From Candidatus Melainabacteria bacterium (GTDB taxonomy: Bacteria; Cyanobacteriota; Vampirovibrionia; 2-02-FULL-35-15), in contig JAHFBE010000003.1 in NCBI GenBank assembly GCA_023250205.1, positions 1 to 56,450 on the forward strand: a DNA stretch of 56,450 bases, written 5' to 3'. The notes below the pieces were generated by a model. That model was given only the letters and a program-made list of their open reading frames with translations. It ran no database searches and was not told where the DNA came from. The position numbers were made by a program, and so were the translations under genes. Shown piece by piece: positions 1-8,317 of the stretch (position 1 is its first letter; the number at the start of each line of letters is the position of its first letter).

Positions 1-827
1 GTTTTGGAACAAAAGCAGGTCTTGCTCCAATGCACACATGGCTTCCTGATGCCCACAGTGAAGCTCCTACACCTGTAAGTGCCTTGTTATCCGGAGTACT
101 TTTAAAGTGTGCTTTATATGGAATTATCCGATTTGCAATTTTAATTAATCTTGCTGTTGACAGTAATTTTACAAGTCATCTTCTCTTGTTCTTTGGGCTC
201 TTGTCAATAATAGTTGCAACCCCGTTTATTTTAGTTCAGAAAAACATTAAACGTCTTTTGGCATACAGTTCTCTTGAACATATTGGAATAATAACAACTG
301 GTCTGGCATTTGGAAATTCGCTTTCTGTTTTTGGTGCATTTATTCACATTATTAATCACGCAATTGTTAAATCACTTATGTTTTTTACGGCAGGAAATAT
401 TTCATTAAAATTCCACACTAAAGATATGGATCATATTAAAGGAGCAGCTCAAATTGTTCCGCTTAGTGCTTTTGCTCTTATTCTTGGAGGGCTTGCGCTT
501 GCAGGTGCACCACCATTTTCAATTTTTATAAGTGAGTTTTACATTCTTGCCGGTGGAATTAAAGAAAATCATTTAATTGCAAGCGGACTGATTATTTTTC
601 TCCTTACAGTAATCTTTGGAGGGCTTCTTTATCATTTCCTTAAAATTACTATAGGACCGATTAATGGTCTAACAAATCTTTCTAACGCACAACTTGGAAG
701 GTCAAGCAACTTTCCTGTTCTTATATGTCTTTTTGTTATTGTTTTACTTGGAGTTTCAATACCATCTCCACTATTCCGTCTTGTAAATGAAGCAGTAAAA
801 ATATTTAGCATGGGAAATACGATATGA
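1..827 (+). CDS. hyfF: Hydrogenase-4 component F / NuoL-M-like antiporter-type membrane subunit (5'-truncated)
   Basis: The frame is open from the window start: FGTKAGLAPMHTWLPDAHSEAPTPVSALLSG and KRLLAYSSLEHIG are proton-conducting subunit motifs; very hydrophobic; overlaps the next gene by 4 nt. Confidence 0.9.
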   Translation, partial: FGTKAGLAPMHTWLPDAHSEAPTPVSALLSGVLLKCALYGIIRFAILINLAVDSNFTSHLLLFFGLLSIIVATPFILVQKNIKRLLAYSSLEHIGIITTGLAFGNSLSVFGAFIHIINHAIVKSLMFFTAGNISLKFHTKDMDHIKGAAQIVPLSAFALILGGLALAGAPPFSIFISEFYILAGGIKENHLIASGLIIFLLTVIFGGLLYHFLKITIGPINGLTNLSNAQLGRSSNFPVLICLFVIVLLGVSIPSPLFRLVNEAVKIFSMGNTI

Positions 828-2440
828 AGATATTAGTTGAAAAAGATATAGAATTTTTAGTCGAATGTCTGAAAAAGACACTTAATGTTAATGTCAAGAT
901 AAATGGAGTTAACCATCTTCAAATTACCCTTGAAAAGAACTATTTACTTTCTGCTGTAGAATATATTTCTCAAAATTCTGAATTCAATGCACATTTAATT
1001 ACAATGCTTGCATCTGATGAAAGGGAGTTAAACGGGAACTTTAAACTCTATATAATATTTTCAGTTATTCAGCCAAGGACAATTCTTACTCTTGAAATTT
1101 TATTAGATAAAGATAAACCTTCTTATCCAGCCCTTTCTGAAAAAATCCCTTCGTTAAACTGGCATGAAAGAGAAATTCATGATTTGTTTGGAATTGTACC
1201 CGATGGAATTGAATTAGATCCGTTGGTATTGCACAGAGACTGGCCTCATGGAAAATATTTTCCTCTGCGAAATGATTTTCTGCTTAATAAGCAGTTTCCA
1301 TTTGGAGAAGTTAATCATGAATTTAGTCAACCTCATGGAGAAGGTATGCACCAGATTGCAGTAGGACCTATTCATGCAGGAATAATTGAGCCTGGGCATC
1401 TTAGATTTTGTGCAATTGGGGAAGAGATTTACAAATTTGATGCTCAGCTTTTTTATACACATAAAGGGCTTGAAAAAATGGCTTATGGAAAAAGTGTTGA
1501 AGAAGTTCTTGTTCTTGCAGAACATACCTGTGGTATGTGTGCTTTTTCTCATTCAAGTGCATTTTGCCAGGCAGTTGAAAATCTAGGAGGTATTAAAATT
1601 CCCCGGAGAGCGGCTTACCTTAGAACAATTGGCCTTGAAATGGAGAGAATTAGCAATCATATGGCAGATCTTATGGCTATCTGTTCTGCTGGTGGACTTA
1701 GTTTTGGGGCTAGTCATGCCGGAAGACTTAGGGAATTTCTAATGGGACTAAATCATGACTTTGCAGGACATCGTTTTTTTCGAAACTTAAATACAATTGG
1801 CGGATTGAAAAGAAATATTTCTGATGAGTTCTGTAAACTACTCCTGGAAAAACTTGAAAAATTTAAACCTCAATTTCAGGAATGGGAGCAACTAATAACA
1901 AATAATGATAGTCTTCTTGACAGACTTGAGCTTACAGGATTTTTATCTAATGAAAATGGACTTAAACTTGGGATTGTTGGTCCTGCTGCAAGAGCTTCAA
2001 ATATTGACAGAGATGTTAGGCGTGATTATCCTTACTTTGCTTATGAAGATTATGTTGTTAAAGTGCCGATATATGAAGATGGAGATGCTTTAGCACGCAT
2101 GCAGGTCAGAATTGATGAAGTATATGAATCTTTAAGGCTTATTAAAAATTTAATTAACAATCTTCCTTCTGGAAGCATCTTAGATCATAATTCTCTAAAA
2201 TACCCTATTCATACGCCTTCTATATCAATAGTTGAATCTGCCAAAGGTGAACTGTCCCATTTTATTATGCTTGGTGAAGAAAATAAAGTTTTTCGCTGGC
2301 ATGTAAGAAGTGCTTCATATATGAACTGGAGAGGAGTAGTACAGGCAACTATGGGGCAGGACAGATTTAAAAATATTGTTCCAGATGGACCACTTGTAAA
2401 TAAAAGCTTTAATTTATGTTATGCCTGTGTGGATAGGTAA
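824..2440 (+). CDS. hyfG: Group 4 [NiFe]-hydrogenase-like / Ehr large subunit (NuoC+NuoD-like fusion, HycE/HyfG type)
   Basis: WHEREIHDLFGI, VGPIHAGIIEPGHLRF, YTHKGLEK, EHTCGMC, ELERIxNH-like EMERISNH, C-terminus NKSFNLCYACVDR. Confidence 0.9.
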   Translation: MKILVEKDIEFLVECLKKTLNVNVKINGVNHLQITLEKNYLLSAVEYISQNSEFNAHLITMLASDERELNGNFKLYIIFSVIQPRTILTLEILLDKDKPSYPALSEKIPSLNWHEREIHDLFGIVPDGIELDPLVLHRDWPHGKYFPLRNDFLLNKQFPFGEVNHEFSQPHGEGMHQIAVGPIHAGIIEPGHLRFCAIGEEIYKFDAQLFYTHKGLEKMAYGKSVEEVLVLAEHTCGMCAFSHSSAFCQAVENLGGIKIPRRAAYLRTIGLEMERISNHMADLMAICSAGGLSFGASHAGRLREFLMGLNHDFAGHRFFRNLNTIGGLKRNISDEFCKLLLEKLEKFKPQFQEWEQLITNNDSLLDRLELTGFLSNENGLKLGIVGPAARASNIDRDVRRDYPYFAYEDYVVKVPIYEDGDALARMQVRIDEVYESLRLIKNLINNLPSGSILDHNSLKYPIHTPSISIVESAKGELSHFIMLGEENKVFRWHVRSASYMNWRGVVQATMGQDRFKNIVPDGPLVNKSFNLCYACVDR

Positions 2441-2447
2441 ATTTTTT

Positions 2448-2999
2448 ATGCTGAATATTTTAAAAATGATAGCCAAGACAAAAATTGTGACAGAGAAATC
2501 TCCTCTAATTGAGTCAATTGATTTTGAAACTTTGCAAAAAGATCTATCAAGGTTTGAGAAATTAGATTATGAGGTTAAAAGAGCGCTCAGTAAATCATTG
2601 ACTATTCGTCATTTGGATAGTGGTTCTTCTAATGCCGAGGAAGCAGAACTTCTTGCCCTTTCAAACCCTGTTTATGATATTACTCGCTTTGGAATTGATT
2701 TTACAGCTTCACCACGTCATGCAGATGTGCTTACTATAAGTGGTCCTGTTACAAGACAGTTAAAAATTGCAATGGACAGAACTTATAATGCAATGCCCTA
2801 TCCAAAAATTGTCGTAGCAGTTGGTGATGGTGCATGCAATGGTTCTGTTTATCAAAATACATATGCTTGCCTGGGAAGAGTAGATCAATTTTTACCCGTT
2901 GATATTTATATTCCGGGAGATCCACCAACACCAGAGGTAATTTTAAAAGGACTTTTAATGTGTAAATTGATTTTAATTGAAAAGAAGGGTAGGTTGTGA
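2448..2999 (+). CDS. hyfI: NuoB/HycG/HyfI-like small subunit lacking the canonical Fe-S cysteines
   Basis: RHLDSGSSNAEEAEL, FGIDFTASPRHADVL, GPVT, VAVGDGAC, IYIPGDPPTP. ATG 2448, just after the hyfG stop, is preferred over 2421. Confidence 0.85.
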   Translation: MLNILKMIAKTKIVTEKSPLIESIDFETLQKDLSRFEKLDYEVKRALSKSLTIRHLDSGSSNAEEAELLALSNPVYDITRFGIDFTASPRHADVLTISGPVTRQLKIAMDRTYNAMPYPKIVVAVGDGACNGSVYQNTYACLGRVDQFLPVDIYIPGDPPTPEVILKGLLMCKLILIEKKGRL

Positions 3000-3589
3000 A
3001 AATGGATAAAAAAGATAGTTTATTAAAAGTTGATGTCTTGTCAATCGGATTATTTGGATTGGCAGTGGGTGCTTTGACTCTAGGACTTGTGCAGATTGGA
3101 ATTATTCCACATAATGACGATCTGGCTATATCAATCATCTGTCTTATTTTTGGTGGTATTGTTCAGATTATAGCTGGCATGATTGATGTAAGGTATCATG
3201 ATCAGCTTGGTGGAACAGCATTGACTATGTATGGATTTTACTGGACAACTGTTTTTACAGTTAAGATTCTTGGTTTAGTAGAGGGATTTCACTGGGATAA
3301 TGTGCTTTTCCTGCCACTTGTGGTAATCTATGCAATGTTTTCAGCGATAATGATTTACTTAACGGGTCATAAATCCAAGGCTTTAATGATACTTCATGTT
3401 TTCATTACTGTAGTTTTTACTATTGATATTTTTATTAAATTAAATTATCCATTTGAATATTATGCAGGTATAGATCATATTATTATTGGTCTTCTTGCAC
3501 TTTATCATGCAATGGTTACACTGATAAATAAATTCACTGGCAAAGCAGGATTTTTATTAGGAAACCCTCCATTCAAATTCAGGAATTAA
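2996..3589 (+). CDS. satP: GPR1/FUN34/YaaH (SatP-like) acetate/carboxylate channel
   Basis: IGLFGLAVGALTL, FGGIVQIIAGM, GTALTMYGFYW; about 6 hydrophobic helices; overlaps hyfI by 4 nt. Confidence 0.75.
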   Translation: MKMDKKDSLLKVDVLSIGLFGLAVGALTLGLVQIGIIPHNDDLAISIICLIFGGIVQIIAGMIDVRYHDQLGGTALTMYGFYWTTVFTVKILGLVEGFHWDNVLFLPLVVIYAMFSAIMIYLTGHKSKALMILHVFITVVFTIDIFIKLNYPFEYYAGIDHIIIGLLALYHAMVTLINKFTGKAGFLLGNPPFKFRN

Positions 3590-4136
3590 TTATATAAAGT
3601 TTATTGTCTTCTATGTTATATAACATAGGCACAAAGATAATCGGAGGGTATTTCTCTTTTAATCTTTTACTTTCACTTACTATAAATTCTTTTTCATTCT
3701 CTATTTCAAAGAAGGGAGCAAAAGAATTAAAGTGATTTTCTGCCTGTTCTTTAGTCCAGCTAGCATTTTTAACAAGTCCATCTACAAATTTTTCTTTTTT
3801 GCTGGTTAGATTTACCATTCCACAGTTTGTATGAGCTATAAGTGCTACAAATTTAATATCAGCAAAGCCAATTGCAAAGGAGAGCTTGAATTCATTACCA
3901 GTAATCCTTGCTCCTGCCGTCCTTAAGATATATGAAAATTTACCAGGTATGTTAAGCTGCTTTCTATTATCCATGCACATTACTATAGCCATCTGTGCAG
4001 TATCGTAATCTTTAAATGGCATTTCAAGATTATGATATTTAAGTAAATCAGCAATTGGAGTATTTAAAAGATTATTAGGAATATCTTTTTCATTACAGAT
4101 ATCTATAAGCTGATATTTTGAAGTAACATCTTTCAT
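3579..4136 (-). CDS. Beta-class carbonic anhydrase
   Basis: Zn-binding motifs CMDNR (CxDxR) and HTNC (HxxC), plus RTAG. Confidence 0.85.
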   Translation of the reverse strand: MKDVTSKYQLIDICNEKDIPNNLLNTPIADLLKYHNLEMPFKDYDTAQMAIVMCMDNRKQLNIPGKFSYILRTAGARITGNEFKLSFAIGFADIKFVALIAHTNCGMVNLTSKKEKFVDGLVKNASWTKEQAENHFNSFAPFFEIENEKEFIVSESKRLKEKYPPIIFVPMLYNIEDNKLYIINS

Positions 4137-4150
4137 AATAAATTAAAACA

Positions 4151-4558
4151 TTATGCCCAGAAAGAAATAATCTCTGAATAAGTAGATAAAAGCTCGCTGT
4201 TTATAGCTAACTGATAGCCTATTAAATGAAGTGCACTGATAAGTACCTTTGAAATCTTTTTTGACTCAGTAAGATAGTAATATACTTCTTTACCCTTTCT
4301 TTCTTCAACAACAAGCTTATTTACTTTTAAAAGTGAAAGATGTTGTGAAACATTTGACTGGCTTATGTATAGTTCATCTTGTATTTGATGAACGTTTAAA
4401 CTTTTTTTCTTTTTTAATAACCATAAAATTTTAACCCTTATTGGATGTGAGAGTATTGAAAATAAATTCGAAACAGAATTAATTTGTTCCTCAGGGGTTT
4501 TATATACAACTCTTTTTTTACTTTTCATTATGGGTTCTATTATATCAGCTAGTAACAT
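4151..4558 (-). CDS. ArsR/SmtB family transcriptional regulator
   Basis: LFSILSHPIRVKIL...SQSNVSQHLSLLK...EERKGKEVYY winged HTH. Confidence 0.9.
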   Translation of the reverse strand: MLLADIIEPIMKSKKRVVYKTPEEQINSVSNLFSILSHPIRVKILWLLKKKKSLNVHQIQDELYISQSNVSQHLSLLKVNKLVVEERKGKEVYYYLTESKKISKVLISALHLIGYQLAINSELLSTYSEIISFWA

Positions 4559-4595
4559 ATTCTAATATTCGAATGTGTTAAAATCTTCAGGTATC

Positions 4596-6131
4596 ATGAA
4601 TCTAAATCGTAAAAATTACTCTATTGACAAATTTAAAGCTGACTTTTTCTCATCTATAGTTGTATTTCTTGTTGCGCTTCCTTTATGTCTTGGAATTGCT
4701 ATAGCTTCAGGAATGCTGCCAGCAGCAGGTTTAATATCTGGAATTATTGGTGGAATAATTGTTGGTAGTTTATCTGGTTGCCCTCTTCAAGTAAGCGGAC
4801 CAGCTGCTGGTCTTGTAGGTATTATTTATGAAGTAATTCAAGAACATGGTATTGAAAGTCTTGGAGCTATTGTTTTGTTTGCGGGTGTTCTACAAATAGT
4901 TGCCGGTATTTTAAAACTTGGACCATGGTTTCGAGCTGTTTCTCCACCAGTTATTCATGGAATGCTTGCTGGTATTGGAATCCTTATATTTTCCAGTCAG
5001 TTCCATGTAATGGTTGATGATCTGCCAAAAAGTTCTGGGATTGAAAATATACTATCTCTTCCTACCAGCTTTCTTAAGGGAGTAACTCCGCTTGATACTA
5101 CCAGCCATCATTTAGCTGCATTAATTGGATTAATAACTATTTCCAGCATGATTCTCTGGAGATTTATGCCAAAGAAGTTAAAAACTATACCTTCTGCTTT
5201 AGTTGGAGTCTTGATGACTACTTTATTAGCACATTACTTACATTATCCTATTAAGCATGTTTTAGTTCCTGAAAATATTTGGAGTGCTATTAAACTTCCA
5301 TCATTAGAAAGTTTTTCTTGTCTTTTAAGCTGGGAGGTATTGGTTGAAGCTTTAACAGTGGCATTTATTGCTAGTGCTGAGACTTTGCTTACTTCCTCTG
5401 CAATAGATAAAATGAAATCAAGTCACAGGACAAATTATAATAAAGAAATTATTGCTCAGGGTATTGGTAATTCTTTAGCGGGCTTAATTGGAGCAATTCC
5501 AATAACAGGTGTTATTGTACGTAGTGCAGCAAATGTTACTGCAGGTGCTAAGACACGCGCTTCAGCAGTCTTTCATGGAGTATGGATCTTGTTGTTTGTT
5601 GCTTATTTTTCTCGGTTACTAGAAATGATTCCTACGGCTGCCCTTGCTGCTGTTTTAGTTTATACAGGGTATAAATTAGTAGATTTAAATGCAATAAAAA
5701 ATCTAGCTAAGATTGGTAAGAGTGAAATAGTTATATATTTTGTAACATTATCTGCCATTGTTATGACTAGTCTGCTTGAAGGAATTCTTATTGGAATAGT
5801 ATTTTCTGTGATTAAACTACTCTATGATTTCTCAAAACTGGAATTAAGAATTGAAAAAGAAAAAGAGGAAAATATAGTTCATTTCTATATTAATGGAAAT
5901 GCTACTTTTATTAATCTTCCAAAGTTTGCTGATGCTCTGGAAAGTATTGTTCACGGGAAAGAAGTTTTTGTTCACTTTGAAGGACTTGTTCATATTGATC
6001 ATGCAAGTCTGGAATTTATAATGAACTGGGAAAAGCAATATGAGTCTGCAGGGGGAGTTGTTTCAATTAGATGGAATGAACTTGAAGCAAAGTTTAACAA
6101 ATCAAAAGCTATTAGTCGATCAAAAGTTTAA
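4596..6131 (+). CDS. SulP/SLC26 anion (bicarbonate/sulfate) transporter with short STAS-like tail
   Basis: VVFLVALPLCLGIAIASG, QVSGPAAG, EIIAQGIGN, TGVIVRSAAN. Start is either ATG 4596 or GTG 4575. Confidence 0.92.
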   Translation: MNLNRKNYSIDKFKADFFSSIVVFLVALPLCLGIAIASGMLPAAGLISGIIGGIIVGSLSGCPLQVSGPAAGLVGIIYEVIQEHGIESLGAIVLFAGVLQIVAGILKLGPWFRAVSPPVIHGMLAGIGILIFSSQFHVMVDDLPKSSGIENILSLPTSFLKGVTPLDTTSHHLAALIGLITISSMILWRFMPKKLKTIPSALVGVLMTTLLAHYLHYPIKHVLVPENIWSAIKLPSLESFSCLLSWEVLVEALTVAFIASAETLLTSSAIDKMKSSHRTNYNKEIIAQGIGNSLAGLIGAIPITGVIVRSAANVTAGAKTRASAVFHGVWILLFVAYFSRLLEMIPTAALAAVLVYTGYKLVDLNAIKNLAKIGKSEIVIYFVTLSAIVMTSLLEGILIGIVFSVIKLLYDFSKLELRIEKEKEENIVHFYINGNATFINLPKFADALESIVHGKEVFVHFEGLVHIDHASLEFIMNWEKQYESAGGVVSIRWNELEAKFNKSKAISRSKV

Positions 6132-8317
6132 TCTCTAAATCCTTCTTTAAGATTATTTGCAAATTTTAATATATTGTTCTTTATTTCTTCAGTAACTTTT
6201 TTTGCATTTTCAACAGCATCTTCAAGAGCTTCTTGTTTAGACTTCTTAGCTTCTTCCATTTGTTTTTGCTCGGCTTTAGCTTGTTCTTCAGCAGCTTTCT
6301 TTGCATTTTCAATAGCTTCTTGTTTAGACTTCTCAGCTTCTTCCATTTGTTTTTGCTCGGCTTTAGCTTGTTCTTCAGCAGCTTTCTTTGCATCTTCAAT
6401 AGCTTCTTGTTTGGATTTCTCAACTTCTTCGGCTTGTTTTTGCTCAGCTTTAGCTTGTTCTTCAGCAGCTTTCTTTGCATCTTCAATAGCTTTTTGTTTG
6501 GATTTCTCAACTTCTTCAGCTTGTTTTTGTTCAGCTTTAGCTTGCTCTTCAGTAGCTTTTTTCTTGGCTTCTTCCATAGCATTTTTTATTGCTTCTATGG
6601 CTTGTTTGATATTTCCTTGATTGTTACTAGCAGTGTTTAAGACTTCTGGTATTGAAGGAAGAGGATTAGCCATTATGACTGGCTGAGTAGTGGTAGTAGT
6701 TGCAGGAAGAGGATCAGCCATTATGATTGGTTGAGTGGTAGTAGTAGTTGCAGGAAGAGGATCAGCCATTATGATTGGTTGAGTGGTAGTAGTAGTTGAA
6801 GGAAGAGGATCAGCCATTATGATTGGTTGAGTGGTAGTAGTAGTTACAGGAAGAGGATCAGCCATTGTAGTTGGTTGAGTTATTGTGTTTGCAGGAGAAG
6901 AAGAACTGATATTTGTTATTACTGGACTTGGGGATGGATTAAAATTAATTACAGTTGGGATTTGGATAGTGTCTGTTGAAGTTGTTGAAGCTGTAGTAGT
7001 TGGCTTATTAGATGCATTATTATTTGAAGGACTATTGGACATAGAGCCTCCAGTATCCAGATTTAAAACAACATTATTATCAGAGGTAATGCTTCCTGTA
7101 GGTGCAATATATAAACCTCTAAGAATAGGTGGATTTTCCAGATCATTTGTAGTTAATCTTATTCTTAATTGAATATTACTGCTTGGAGCTATATGAAAAT
7201 TTTGAAATGTAGGAGTTCCATCTCCAAAAGTCTCTATGGTGGATTTAAGTTTGTTTTGTTTGTCTTTTTCTGCAGAATAGATTAGGATATTTTGTTTATA
7301 TGATTCAGTGGTGTATAAACCTAGTTCACAGCCATTTAAGCAGAGACTCATATCAGGGTTTAAATAAAACTCAAGTCCATTGCTTCCCTTTGGTCCTGCC
7401 ATTCCTTGTAAAACTTTGAAATTATAAAAATCTTTATTTTTTAGTGATAATGGGAACTCATAACCAGTTGATGTTGCATACTTAATCATGCCTACACTTA
7501 ATTGAACTAAATCATCATTTTCTGATTCTTCTTTTGATCTTGGCGACCATATTACTGTACTGGAATCAACTCTTTGAGACCAGGTAGGTGCACTTACTTT
7601 CTCAGGTCCAACATAGGTAATCCTTAAATCACTTTCTCTTCTTGGTTCACTCCAAAAAATGCCACTGATCGCTGCTTTAGAATTGTCCTGTGGAGCTATT
7701 TCAATTGTTAGTGTTCCAACTGAGCGAGGATCGGGTGATTTTACTAATAAGTTTAAATAACAACCAACTTTAAATTTTGTATTTTGAATATAAGTAATAT
7801 CTCCTAGAGCACTATTTGCATAAGATAGTTTTAATTTAATTTGTTCAGCAGGATTATTAATAACAAAGGGATCAAAATATAAATTTAATGGGATCCAGGT
7901 AATGAAATCATTATTGTTTTGTAAATCTATCATTATGGAAAGAGTTTCTCCATCAAGTGAAGAAGATAAATAATATTTATTTCTTTCACCATTTTTAGAA
8001 GCACTTTCTGGAGTACTTATACTAATTGAGCTGCTTTCCTGAATAACACCGGAGTAAGTTAGGTTTGTTATATATGGAGGTAATTTTGTTTGCGTATTTG
8101 ATGGGTCAGCAAGCCAATAATATGAATACTCTGTACTCCATGCTCCGTTTAAATCACAATTTGTTTTTGGGGCTGATTCCTTTATATATGATGGATTTAG
8201 GTAAGTAGCATTTGAAATTTCTGGGGCAGTTTGAGCTAATACTTGGCCAGTACAAACTGCTGTAAGCAATAAAAGAATGTATAAGATATTTAAGTTTGAC
8301 TTTGTTTTAGTTTGCAT
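6128..8317 (-). CDS. Secreted hypothetical protein with a Thr/Pro-rich linker and a TolA-like Lys/Glu/Ala coiled-coil tail
   Basis: 729-aa ORF with an N-terminal signal-like segment (ILYILLLLTAVCTGQVLA) and two internal repeat arrays. Confidence 0.75.
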   Translation of the reverse strand: MQTKTKSNLNILYILLLLTAVCTGQVLAQTAPEISNATYLNPSYIKESAPKTNCDLNGAWSTEYSYYWLADPSNTQTKLPPYITNLTYSGVIQESSSISISTPESASKNGERNKYYLSSSLDGETLSIMIDLQNNNDFITWIPLNLYFDPFVINNPAEQIKLKLSYANSALGDITYIQNTKFKVGCYLNLLVKSPDPRSVGTLTIEIAPQDNSKAAISGIFWSEPRRESDLRITYVGPEKVSAPTWSQRVDSSTVIWSPRSKEESENDDLVQLSVGMIKYATSTGYEFPLSLKNKDFYNFKVLQGMAGPKGSNGLEFYLNPDMSLCLNGCELGLYTTESYKQNILIYSAEKDKQNKLKSTIETFGDGTPTFQNFHIAPSSNIQLRIRLTTNDLENPPILRGLYIAPTGSITSDNNVVLNLDTGGSMSNSPSNNNASNKPTTTASTTSTDTIQIPTVINFNPSPSPVITNISSSSPANTITQPTTMADPLPVTTTTTQPIIMADPLPSTTTTTQPIIMADPLPATTTTTQPIIMADPLPATTTTTQPVIMANPLPSIPEVLNTASNNQGNIKQAIEAIKNAMEEAKKKATEEQAKAEQKQAEEVEKSKQKAIEDAKKAAEEQAKAEQKQAEEVEKSKQEAIEDAKKAAEEQAKAEQKQMEEAEKSKQEAIENAKKAAEEQAKAEQKQMEEAKKSKQEALEDAVENAKKVTEEIKNNILKFANNLKEGFRD
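6216..6564 (-). repeat. Four intragenic 87-bp repeats (KKAAEEQAKAEQKQ[A/M]EExEKSKQEAIEDA)
   Basis: The 29-aa unit appears 4 times in the translation; the DNA copies are near-identical. Confidence 0.9.
6654..6880 (-). repeat. About five intragenic 48-bp repeats (QPIIMADPLPxTTTTT)
   Basis: ggaagaggatcagccattatgattggttgagtggtagtagtagtt recurs every 48 nt. Confidence 0.9.

Follow-up and report, generated by a model that had tools for sequence, protein, structure and literature searches.

Retention of the four metal-ligand cysteines in a Hyf-like complex of Vampirovibrionia that seems to have lost its electron path

The first 56 kb of contig C26 from a Candidatus Melainabacteria genome (2.09 Mb, 83 contigs, 86.5% complete), a stretch of 56,450 nucleotides referred to here as the window, opens inside a hyfB-C-E-F-G-I operon, which is divided between contig C50 and the window and whose fifth gene (824-2440) encodes the large subunit of a membrane complex. 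This complex, together with its orthologues in the same class, the Vampirovibrionia, keeps the four cysteines that ligate the metals in [NiFe]-hydrogenases. The HyfBCEFGI-type complex of this window clade seems, with a probability of about 0.6, to have descended from a group-4 (4f-like) [NiFe]-hydrogenase and to function as a non-redox, ion-coupled machine with a Cys4 pocket that does not hold NiFe. Hydrogenase chemistry appears very unlikely in the clade, because the hydrogenase maturation (Hyp) genes are absent, the electron path is lost, the second sphere of the metal site is changed, and no redox partner was found.

Large-subunit cysteines, electron path and maturation genes

The two peripheral subunits and the motifs discussed below lie at the start of the window, behind the end of the hyfF gene:

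3..827, + strand: HyfF-like antiporter-like subunit, C-terminal 274 amino acids (PF00361; NCBIfam 'hydrogenase 4 subunit F')
824..2440, + strand: large subunit of 538 amino acids with fused NuoC and NuoD/HycE-like domains (Pfam Complex1_30kDa, Complex1_49kDa and NiFeSe_Hases)
1520..1552, + strand: L1 motif EHTCGMCAFSH with C236 and C239 (sequence)
2243..2245, + strand: Lys474 at the position of the canopy Arg, HycE R478 (alignment to HycE and MbhL)
2399..2440, + strand: C-terminal motif NKSFNLCYACVDR and stop, with C532 and C535, and with Asn530 at the position of HycE D529 (sequence and alignment)
2448..2999, + strand: HyfI/NuoB-like small subunit (PF01058; alignments to MbhJ and HycG)
2823-2837, 2859-2870 and 2952-2966, + strand: small-subunit cysteine motifs GDGAC, TYAC and LxCK (110 clade members)

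The product of the open reading frame at 824-2440 contains C236 and C239 within EHTCGMCAFSH and ends at ...PLVNKSFNLCYACVDR, with C532 and C535 inside this last segment and the stop codon immediately after it, and the four residues align with the NiFe-ligating cysteines of HycE and MbhL. The original prediction, drawn from the letters of the window, that both metal-binding CxxC motifs are kept, with a His (His234) in place of Arg in EHTCGMC, and that no cleavable extension follows, agrees with the alignments, though the latter trait holds for the whole family; the C-terminus of the window protein falls at the position of HycE cleavage. The top database relatives are metagenome-assembled genomes (MAGs) of 'Candidatus Melainabacteria' or Vampirovibrionales. 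In the first 65 cluster representatives among the matches listed (pairwise identity 43-89%, median 53%), the L1/L2 motif pair is present in 65/65 and all four cysteines are invariant, in an alignment where only 77 of 538 columns (14%) are invariant; thus, they are not conserved by chance. The five other cysteines of the window protein are retained in 25-92% of these sequences. The four former Ni-Fe cysteines are under strong purifying selection. A separate column table gives Cys in 17/17 clade members at both L1 positions, with residue 234 being His in 14 and Asn in 3.

The small subunit has an open frame from an ATG at 2421 and its start is likely at nucleotide 2448, as the orthologues begin at the Met of MLNILK. 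Aligned to MbhJ and HycG, whose cluster ligands lie in GSCNGC, GxC and GCPP, the window protein has S, E, G and D at the ligand positions (GSSNAEE at 2622-2642, GDGAC at 2823-2837 and GDPPTP at 2916-2933), so that all four canonical cysteines are substituted. Across 110 clade small subunits, ligand 2 is Glu in 110/110, ligand 4 is Asp in 89 or Asn in 20 (109/110), and ligand 1 is still Cys in 73. The description of this subunit as Cys-less is therefore correct for the four ligand positions, but three other cysteines are present. Moreover, many of the small subunits of 4f-like relatives and of Ehr complexes of Obscuribacter type carry a fused N-terminal 2x[4Fe-4S] domain (two CxxCxxCxxxC(P) motifs), and this ferredoxin domain has been deleted from the small subunit of the window clade. 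Since the domain is fused in relatives, their six-gene operons contain no separate ferredoxin gene, which corrects the initial expectation of such a gene. Neither a ferredoxin gene of HyfH/NuoI type nor a HyfA-like gene was found in the operon or upstream on contig C50; the original prediction had noted the lack of the former within the visible part.

The surroundings of the metal site are also altered. Two canopy residues of HycE, the Arg R478 and the Asp D529, are conserved among hydrogenases, the second of them strictly (PMC9474812). The former position is Lys in the window clade (17/17 and 64/65), and Arg in 52/57 4f-like sequences and in 38/38 Ehr sequences; the latter is Asn (Asn530) in 65/65 clade members, Glu in 55/57 4f-like sequences, and Asp in HycE and MbhL. 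Both replacements in the canopy, Lys for Arg and Asn for Asp/Glu, had escaped the original prediction, and they argue against hydrogenase catalysis. Residue 234, just before L1, is His in 53 and Asn in 12 of the 65 clade members, and Arg in 56/57 4f-like sequences and in HycE and MbhL.

Other parts of the complex are retained. The large subunit keeps Glu189 of the β1-β2 loop and the proton-path residues H279, R390 and E432, equivalents of HycE H284, R395 and E437. Its closest solved relative is HycE (7z0s_E, E 6.5e-84, 31% identity), to which the AlphaFold2 (AF2) model (predicted local distance difference test, pLDDT, 86.7; predicted template modelling score, pTM, 0.91) gives a template modelling score of 0.88. 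In the membrane arm, aligned to PDB 7Z0S, HyfC keeps the equivalents of HycD Y102, R108, E130, E138, E189, E199, E203 and E206, the sole difference among the E-channel residues being E201 to His, and HyfB keeps the Glu of transmembrane helix (TM) 5, the Lys of TM7, the Lys of TM8, the His/His/Lys of TM11 and the Glu of TM12 of HycC. With the charged membrane-arm residues, the proton path and the fold kept, the complex appears capable of translocating ions and of coupling with its peripheral pocket.

Maturation genes (HypA, HypC, HypD, HypE and HypF) were searched in the carriers, which are the 15 genomes, within a sample of 301 of the class, that have a large-subunit orthologue at E below 1e-150; they belong to families f1, f9 and f11 and are mostly 87-98% complete, with two at 56% and 79%. 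HypA, HypC and HypE (the last above its curated cut-off) were each found in 0/15 carriers and in 3/3 control genomes, these being members of the same class with other hydrogenase-type genes; HypD was found in 0/15 carriers and in 8 genomes of the class, likewise ones with other hydrogenase-type genes. HypF was found in 0/12 carriers tested (the window genome and 11/11 others) and in 3 Bacillota controls. A genome search for hyp genes, put forward in the original prediction, thus finds HypA/C/D/E and HypF absent from the window genome and from all carriers tested. The operon itself is kept in the 15 carriers with all reading frames intact, and its six-gene, complex-I-like architecture without NuoEFG, read across C50 and C26, recurs in the same order in 14 orthologous loci; no recurrent redox partner was found around the 15 loci. 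The picture of a metal site without a visible electron wire has therefore held, with a Cys4 set under selection, no proximal-cluster ligands, no ferredoxin upstream, and no Hyp genes.

Phylogenetic position and related complexes

Trees were built for 114 sequences and, under a mixture model, for 54 sequences, the latter tree being rooted with MbhL and HycE. The window clade is monophyletic in both (100/100), restricted to Vampirovibrionia, and spans three families. The Cys-less Ehr clade, with Nitrospira, candidate phyla radiation (CPR) bacteria and Obscuribacter-type Vampirovibrionia, is likewise monophyletic (100/99) and excludes the window clade, so that the original designation of the large subunit as Ehr-type is wrong as far as descent is concerned. 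The LG+G4 quick tree nests the window clade among Bacillota 4f-like sequences (96), and the mixture-model tree leaves a three-way polytomy of the window clade, Planctomycetota 4f-like sequences with Ehr, and other 4f-like sequences. Members of the Cys-less clade end in NKSFNLSYxGNDL and the Cys-bearing relatives read NKSFELC; because the window clade falls outside the Cys-less one, the NKSFNL common to both looks like a parallel change from E to N. Small-subunit identity was tried as a guide to the sister group and did not discriminate (55-60% to 4f-like sequences vs 58-61% to cluster-less Ehr).

Group 4f (Ehf), a putative HydDB class with members in Desulfosporosinus, Thermincola, Sporomusa and Methylocystis, has been described as uncharacterised (bioRxiv 10.1101/2025.08.29.672306). 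It shares with the window system the hyfB-C-E-F-G-I order, a fused NuoC-NuoD subunit, both CxxC pairs and an end at ...CxxCxDR without extension, at 40-45% identity to the window protein. However, group 4f has R before L1, a canopy R and a canopy E, where the window clade has H/N, K and N; it keeps GSCNxC / GxC / GCPP, in many cases with a fused 2x[4Fe-4S] domain, whereas the window clade has neither; HypD is found in 16/26 of the sampled genomes as opposed to 0/15 carriers; and the window clade forms a separate branch (100/100). The original prediction had allowed that the motif set might be routine in a described group 4 clade with a ferredoxin subunit encoded upstream; each of the four cysteines is indeed present in 55-57/57 4f-like relatives, which partly bears out the first half, but no ferredoxin subunit lies upstream. 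Some apparent 'Cys2' 4f-like members were an artefact of pattern matching, due to a change of His to Asn after L1, and have the cysteines in the alignment.

The Ehr complexes of Nitrospira and CPR bacteria are described as Cys-less (PMC10284858; PMC7304191), and a paper on Melainabacteria describes Ehr complexes without metal ligands and one putative 4f enzyme, the combination seen in the window not being reported there (PMC6349859). The window complex resembles Ehr in operon architecture, superfamily and the Asn at the canopy Asp position (NKSFNL), and in that it is presumably not a hydrogenase. Nevertheless, the four Cys positions of Ehr are S/A, T/S, S and G (38/38 without Cys), whereas the window clade keeps all four, and Ehr keeps the canopy Arg and, in most members, the small-subunit cluster, the reverse of what is found in the window clade. 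Two Cys-less and cluster-less Ehr operons (L135 and L063) have the small-subunit gene moved to the first place (I-B-C-E-F-G), and their small subunits share the NxEE / GDGAC / GDPP pattern with the window clade.

Hydrogenase 3 (Hyd-3) of E. coli (HycE/HycG, PDB 7Z0S; PMC9474812) is similar in the Cys ligands, the β1-β2 Glu, the equivalents of H284, R395 and E437, and the HycD E-channel and HycC charged residues, which have conserved counterparts in the window operon. By contrast, the window complex is without HycB, HycF and FdhF partners and without the proximal cluster, R478 is changed to K and D529 to N, and the clade has no C-terminal extension, no processing of HycI type and no Hyp genes.

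The window clade is not alone in part of this pattern. HypD is missing from 10/26 other genomes with Cys-bearing 4f-like complexes (L019, L021, L040, L065, L073, L018, L029, L045, L054 and L082), and the same 10 are without HypF, which casts doubt on the assignment of the entire group 4f to the NiFe hydrogenases. Two loci of Chloroflexota among them, L065 and L073, have a large subunit with all four cysteines and an R/R/E canopy, and have lost the small-subunit ligands independently (GSDNSTD / GSENSCD, GAEAC / GDEAC, and GDPP), with part of the ferredoxin domain remaining. Given these two loci and the other Hyp-less carriers, retention of the cysteines without Hyp genes or a proximal cluster is not unique to the window clade; this clade goes furthest, having lost all but the cysteines. 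Two of the Hyp-less 4f-like carriers, Ectobacillus funiculus JCM 11201 and Sulfoacidibacillus thermotolerans Y002, are in culture, which makes the question of the Cys ligand directly testable.

In metagenome studies, the L1/L2 CxxC motifs are regularly taken as a sign of H2 metabolism, HydDB-style classification being an example, and motif-based calling would label the window clade a group-4f hydrogenase and lead to a false H2 metabolism for Vampirovibrionia/Melainabacteria. Cysteine motifs by themselves are no proof of hydrogen production or consumption, and the clade both warns against such calls and offers a way into the function of the 4f/Ehr superfamily. It also represents a different order of loss on the way from a membrane hydrogenase to a redox-free complex-I-like machine, with the wire lost first and the cysteines kept, which implies that the cysteines have a second function.

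Possible functions of the complex

The genes that follow the operon in the window offer functional clues:

3002..3589, + strand: AceTr/GPR1-FUN34-YaaH-like channel (PF01184, NCBIfam AceTr_1)
3579..4136, - strand: β-carbonic-anhydrase (CA)-like gene (CMDNR ... HTNCG; Pro_CA E 2.4e-5, just below the gathering score)
4151..4558, - strand: ArsR/SmtB-family regulator without cysteines (family matches)
4575..6131, + strand: SulP-family anion transporter, context only (PF00916; NCBIfam SulP, DauA and BicA matches all below cut-offs)

The AceTr-like gene overlaps at its start with the end of the small-subunit gene and forms a conserved seventh member of the locus. It is found in 10/15 carriers, always adjoining the operon, and at E<=1e-20 it has matches in 0/286 non-carrier genomes, one of which has a fragment at E 3.7e-16. 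Its identity across orthologous loci (65-84%) is higher than that of the large subunit. An AceTr-like gene also adjoins some Nitrospira Ehr operons (L060 and L076; L071 by clustering only). The idea that the protein is a subunit of all Ehr/4f complexes was rejected, since six sampled homologues outside the class (49-57% identity) lie away from Hyf-like genes and none was found at Bacillota 4f-like loci.

A non-redox, ion-coupled machine could either move ions like an Mrp antiporter or spend an ion gradient on some non-redox event in the former active-site pocket, and would work with the AceTr-like protein as a dedicated anion channel. The Cys4 pocket may hold a simple, Hyp-independent ligand, such as a mononuclear metal (Zn, Fe or Ni, rubredoxin-like) or a dithiol/disulfide pair, which would act as a structural or regulatory charge centre atop the E-channel and not as an H2-activating site, and the leading candidates for the transported or converted species would be a small carboxylate or CO2/HCO3-. 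A more specific mechanism can be put forward only tentatively, as one doubtful possibility among several. In this case, the former Ni-Fe pocket would have become a Hyp-independent, non-redox site, either a Cys4-bound metal or a thiol switch, with Lys474, Asn530 and His/Asn234 as its new second sphere, and it would take over from electron transfer as the trigger of a complex-I-type ion-translocating machine. Ion movement would then be coupled to a small anion being bound or converted, either an acetate-like carboxylate or CO2/HCO3-, delivered via the dedicated AceTr-like channel. On the same tentative footing, some or all members of group 4f might not be NiFe hydrogenases, and their CxxC pairs might bind a different centre throughout.

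A working group-4f [NiFe]-hydrogenase with a normal NiFe(CN)2CO centre, the maturation genes and electron donor of which were missed or are otherwise supplied, would account for the conservation of the four ligand cysteines, Glu189, H279, R390 and E432, for the fold shared with HycE, and for the match of Pfam NiFeSe_Hases to the L1 region. Nevertheless, it is highly improbable in view of the absence of HypA/C/D/E from 15/15 carriers and of HypF from 12/12, same-class controls having HypA/C/D/E, together with the loss of the proximal-cluster ligands and of the ferredoxin domain, and the replacement of the canopy Arg by Lys and of Asp/Glu by Asn. The idea of a decaying relic in which the cysteines have not yet been lost is the least credible; the cysteines are indeed the ancestral state, present in the HycE and MbhL outgroups and in 4f-like relatives, but they are invariant in 65/65 sequences of 43-89% identity from three families, with intact frames and an operon kept in 15 genomes. 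An Mrp-like cation/proton antiporter, whose peripheral arm would do no more than cap the structure and whose cysteines would serve fold stability only, e.g., through a structural Zn, seems rather unlikely but deserves more weight than the two preceding explanations. It is consistent with the conserved antiporter-like and E-channel residues, with the fact that no redox cofactor sites remain, and with the occurrence of cofactor-free Ehr complexes in CPR bacteria (PMC7304191). However, the CPR loci L063, L087 and L135 have lost the wire and the cysteines together, and thus the fold does not need the cysteines; moreover, K474, N530 and H/N234, which lie beside the site and are specific to the clade and nearly invariant in it, point to a pocket that was remodelled and not just retained.

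About as unlikely as the antiporter is an inorganic-carbon machine analogous to DAB or to the cyanobacterial NDH-1/Cup complexes. Here, ion flow through the membrane arm would power the vectorial hydration of CO2, or the handling of HCO3-, in or beside the former active site; Zn could occupy the Cys-rich pocket, and transport of the anion would fall to the AceTr-like channel, to SulP or to both. In DAB and Cup systems, antiporter-like subunits can reportedly energise CO2 hydration. The β-CA-like and SulP genes beside the operon in the window, and a SulP gene that also follows it in L133, fit such a role. So do the CA-like paralogues in 23 genomes of family f3 (Obscuribacter-type), where the contig that encodes the Cys-less Ehr large subunit has them at a distance of <=7 kb from it. 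In addition, the P0344 contig (Joint Genome Institute, JGI, metagenome) carries, ~1 kb apart, an AceTr-like homologue (50% identical) and an inorganic-carbon pump cluster of P-II / DabA / DabB. Nevertheless, the tie of the convergent β-CA-like gene to the complex is uncertain: its orthologue lies elsewhere in 9 f1 carriers and is also found in a genome without the complex (G007), and f9 and f11 carriers have no CA-like match. A fully Cys4-ligated Zn would, moreover, leave no open water site, and His234 varies (H53/N12). DAB (DabA/DabB), the cyanobacterial NDH-1/Cup complexes and Mrp are functional analogues only. DAB and Mrp resemble the window system in having PF00361 antiporter-like subunits without a full redox chain, and a further point in common may be a tie to carbonic-anhydrase-like proteins and anion transporters; the window system differs in that it has no DabA or Cup homologue and keeps a complete NuoH/NuoB/NuoCD-type coupling module.

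Several observations weigh against the preferred reading of a non-redox, ion-coupled complex with a Cys4 pocket. The carrier genomes are MAGs, in which the absence of a gene is statistical and not absolute. The AF2 model has a pLDDT of <50 for the C-terminal CxxC (residues 527-538), because of which the geometry of the Cys4 site is not supported by the model, and likewise for the β1-β2 loop (182-190). The AceTr-like gene is not beside the operon in 5/15 carriers, and its homologues outside the class adjoin Hyf-like genes in 0/6 sampled; the CA-like gene adjoins the operon only in the window genome within family f1. Furthermore, the small subunit has three unexplained, near-invariant cysteines, in GDGAC (109/110), TYAC (106/110) and LxCK (108/110), the latter two of which are not present in the relatives examined, and they could form an unconventional metal site. 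Finally, no candidate energy source for a non-redox mode of working has emerged, and the identity of the occupant of the Cys4 site is pure inference.

Locus layout and further observations

Contig C50 carries, in order, an ECF (extracytoplasmic function) sigma factor, an anti-sigma factor, a HyfB-like protein (653 amino acids), a HyfC/NuoH-like protein (331 amino acids), a HyfE-like protein (229 amino acids) and the first 217 codons of HyfF, a truncated antiporter-like gene with PF00361 matches at the extreme end of the contig. The two HyfF halves (217 amino acids on C50 and 274 at window 3-827) align one after the other with the L121 orthologue (residues 4-221 and 224-501), so that C50 and C26 abut inside hyfF with ~2 codons missing. 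The sigma factor and the anti-sigma factor, the latter with a HxxxCxxC motif (zinc-binding, ZAS-type), occupy L007 6727-8001 upstream of hyfB. In orthologous loci an ArsR-type gene stands in place of this pair: the nearest upstream neighbour of hyfB belongs to the ArsR family (31-40% identical) in 11/14 of them. A universal upstream or downstream partner was sought across 95 loci and rejected, since nothing recurs except regulators (ArsR, sigma-54 activators) and lineage-specific genes. At Rfam gathering thresholds, no fluoride or other riboswitch was found upstream of the operon in the window, in L007 or in six orthologous loci.

The divergent β-CA-like family (CxD/ExR ... HxxC) to which the window gene and genes at L117 and L119 belong takes one of two places near the Ehr operons of the 23 Obscuribacter-type genomes, either immediately behind the small-subunit gene or pointing away from hyfB, and many other β-CA-like matches are domains of ~840-amino-acid proteins, possibly transporter fusions. 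Further along the window, at 6128-8317 on the - strand, lies the gene of a secreted-looking protein of 729 amino acids with tandem TTTQPIIMADPLP repeats and a long charged repeat region of EEQAKAEQKQ type.

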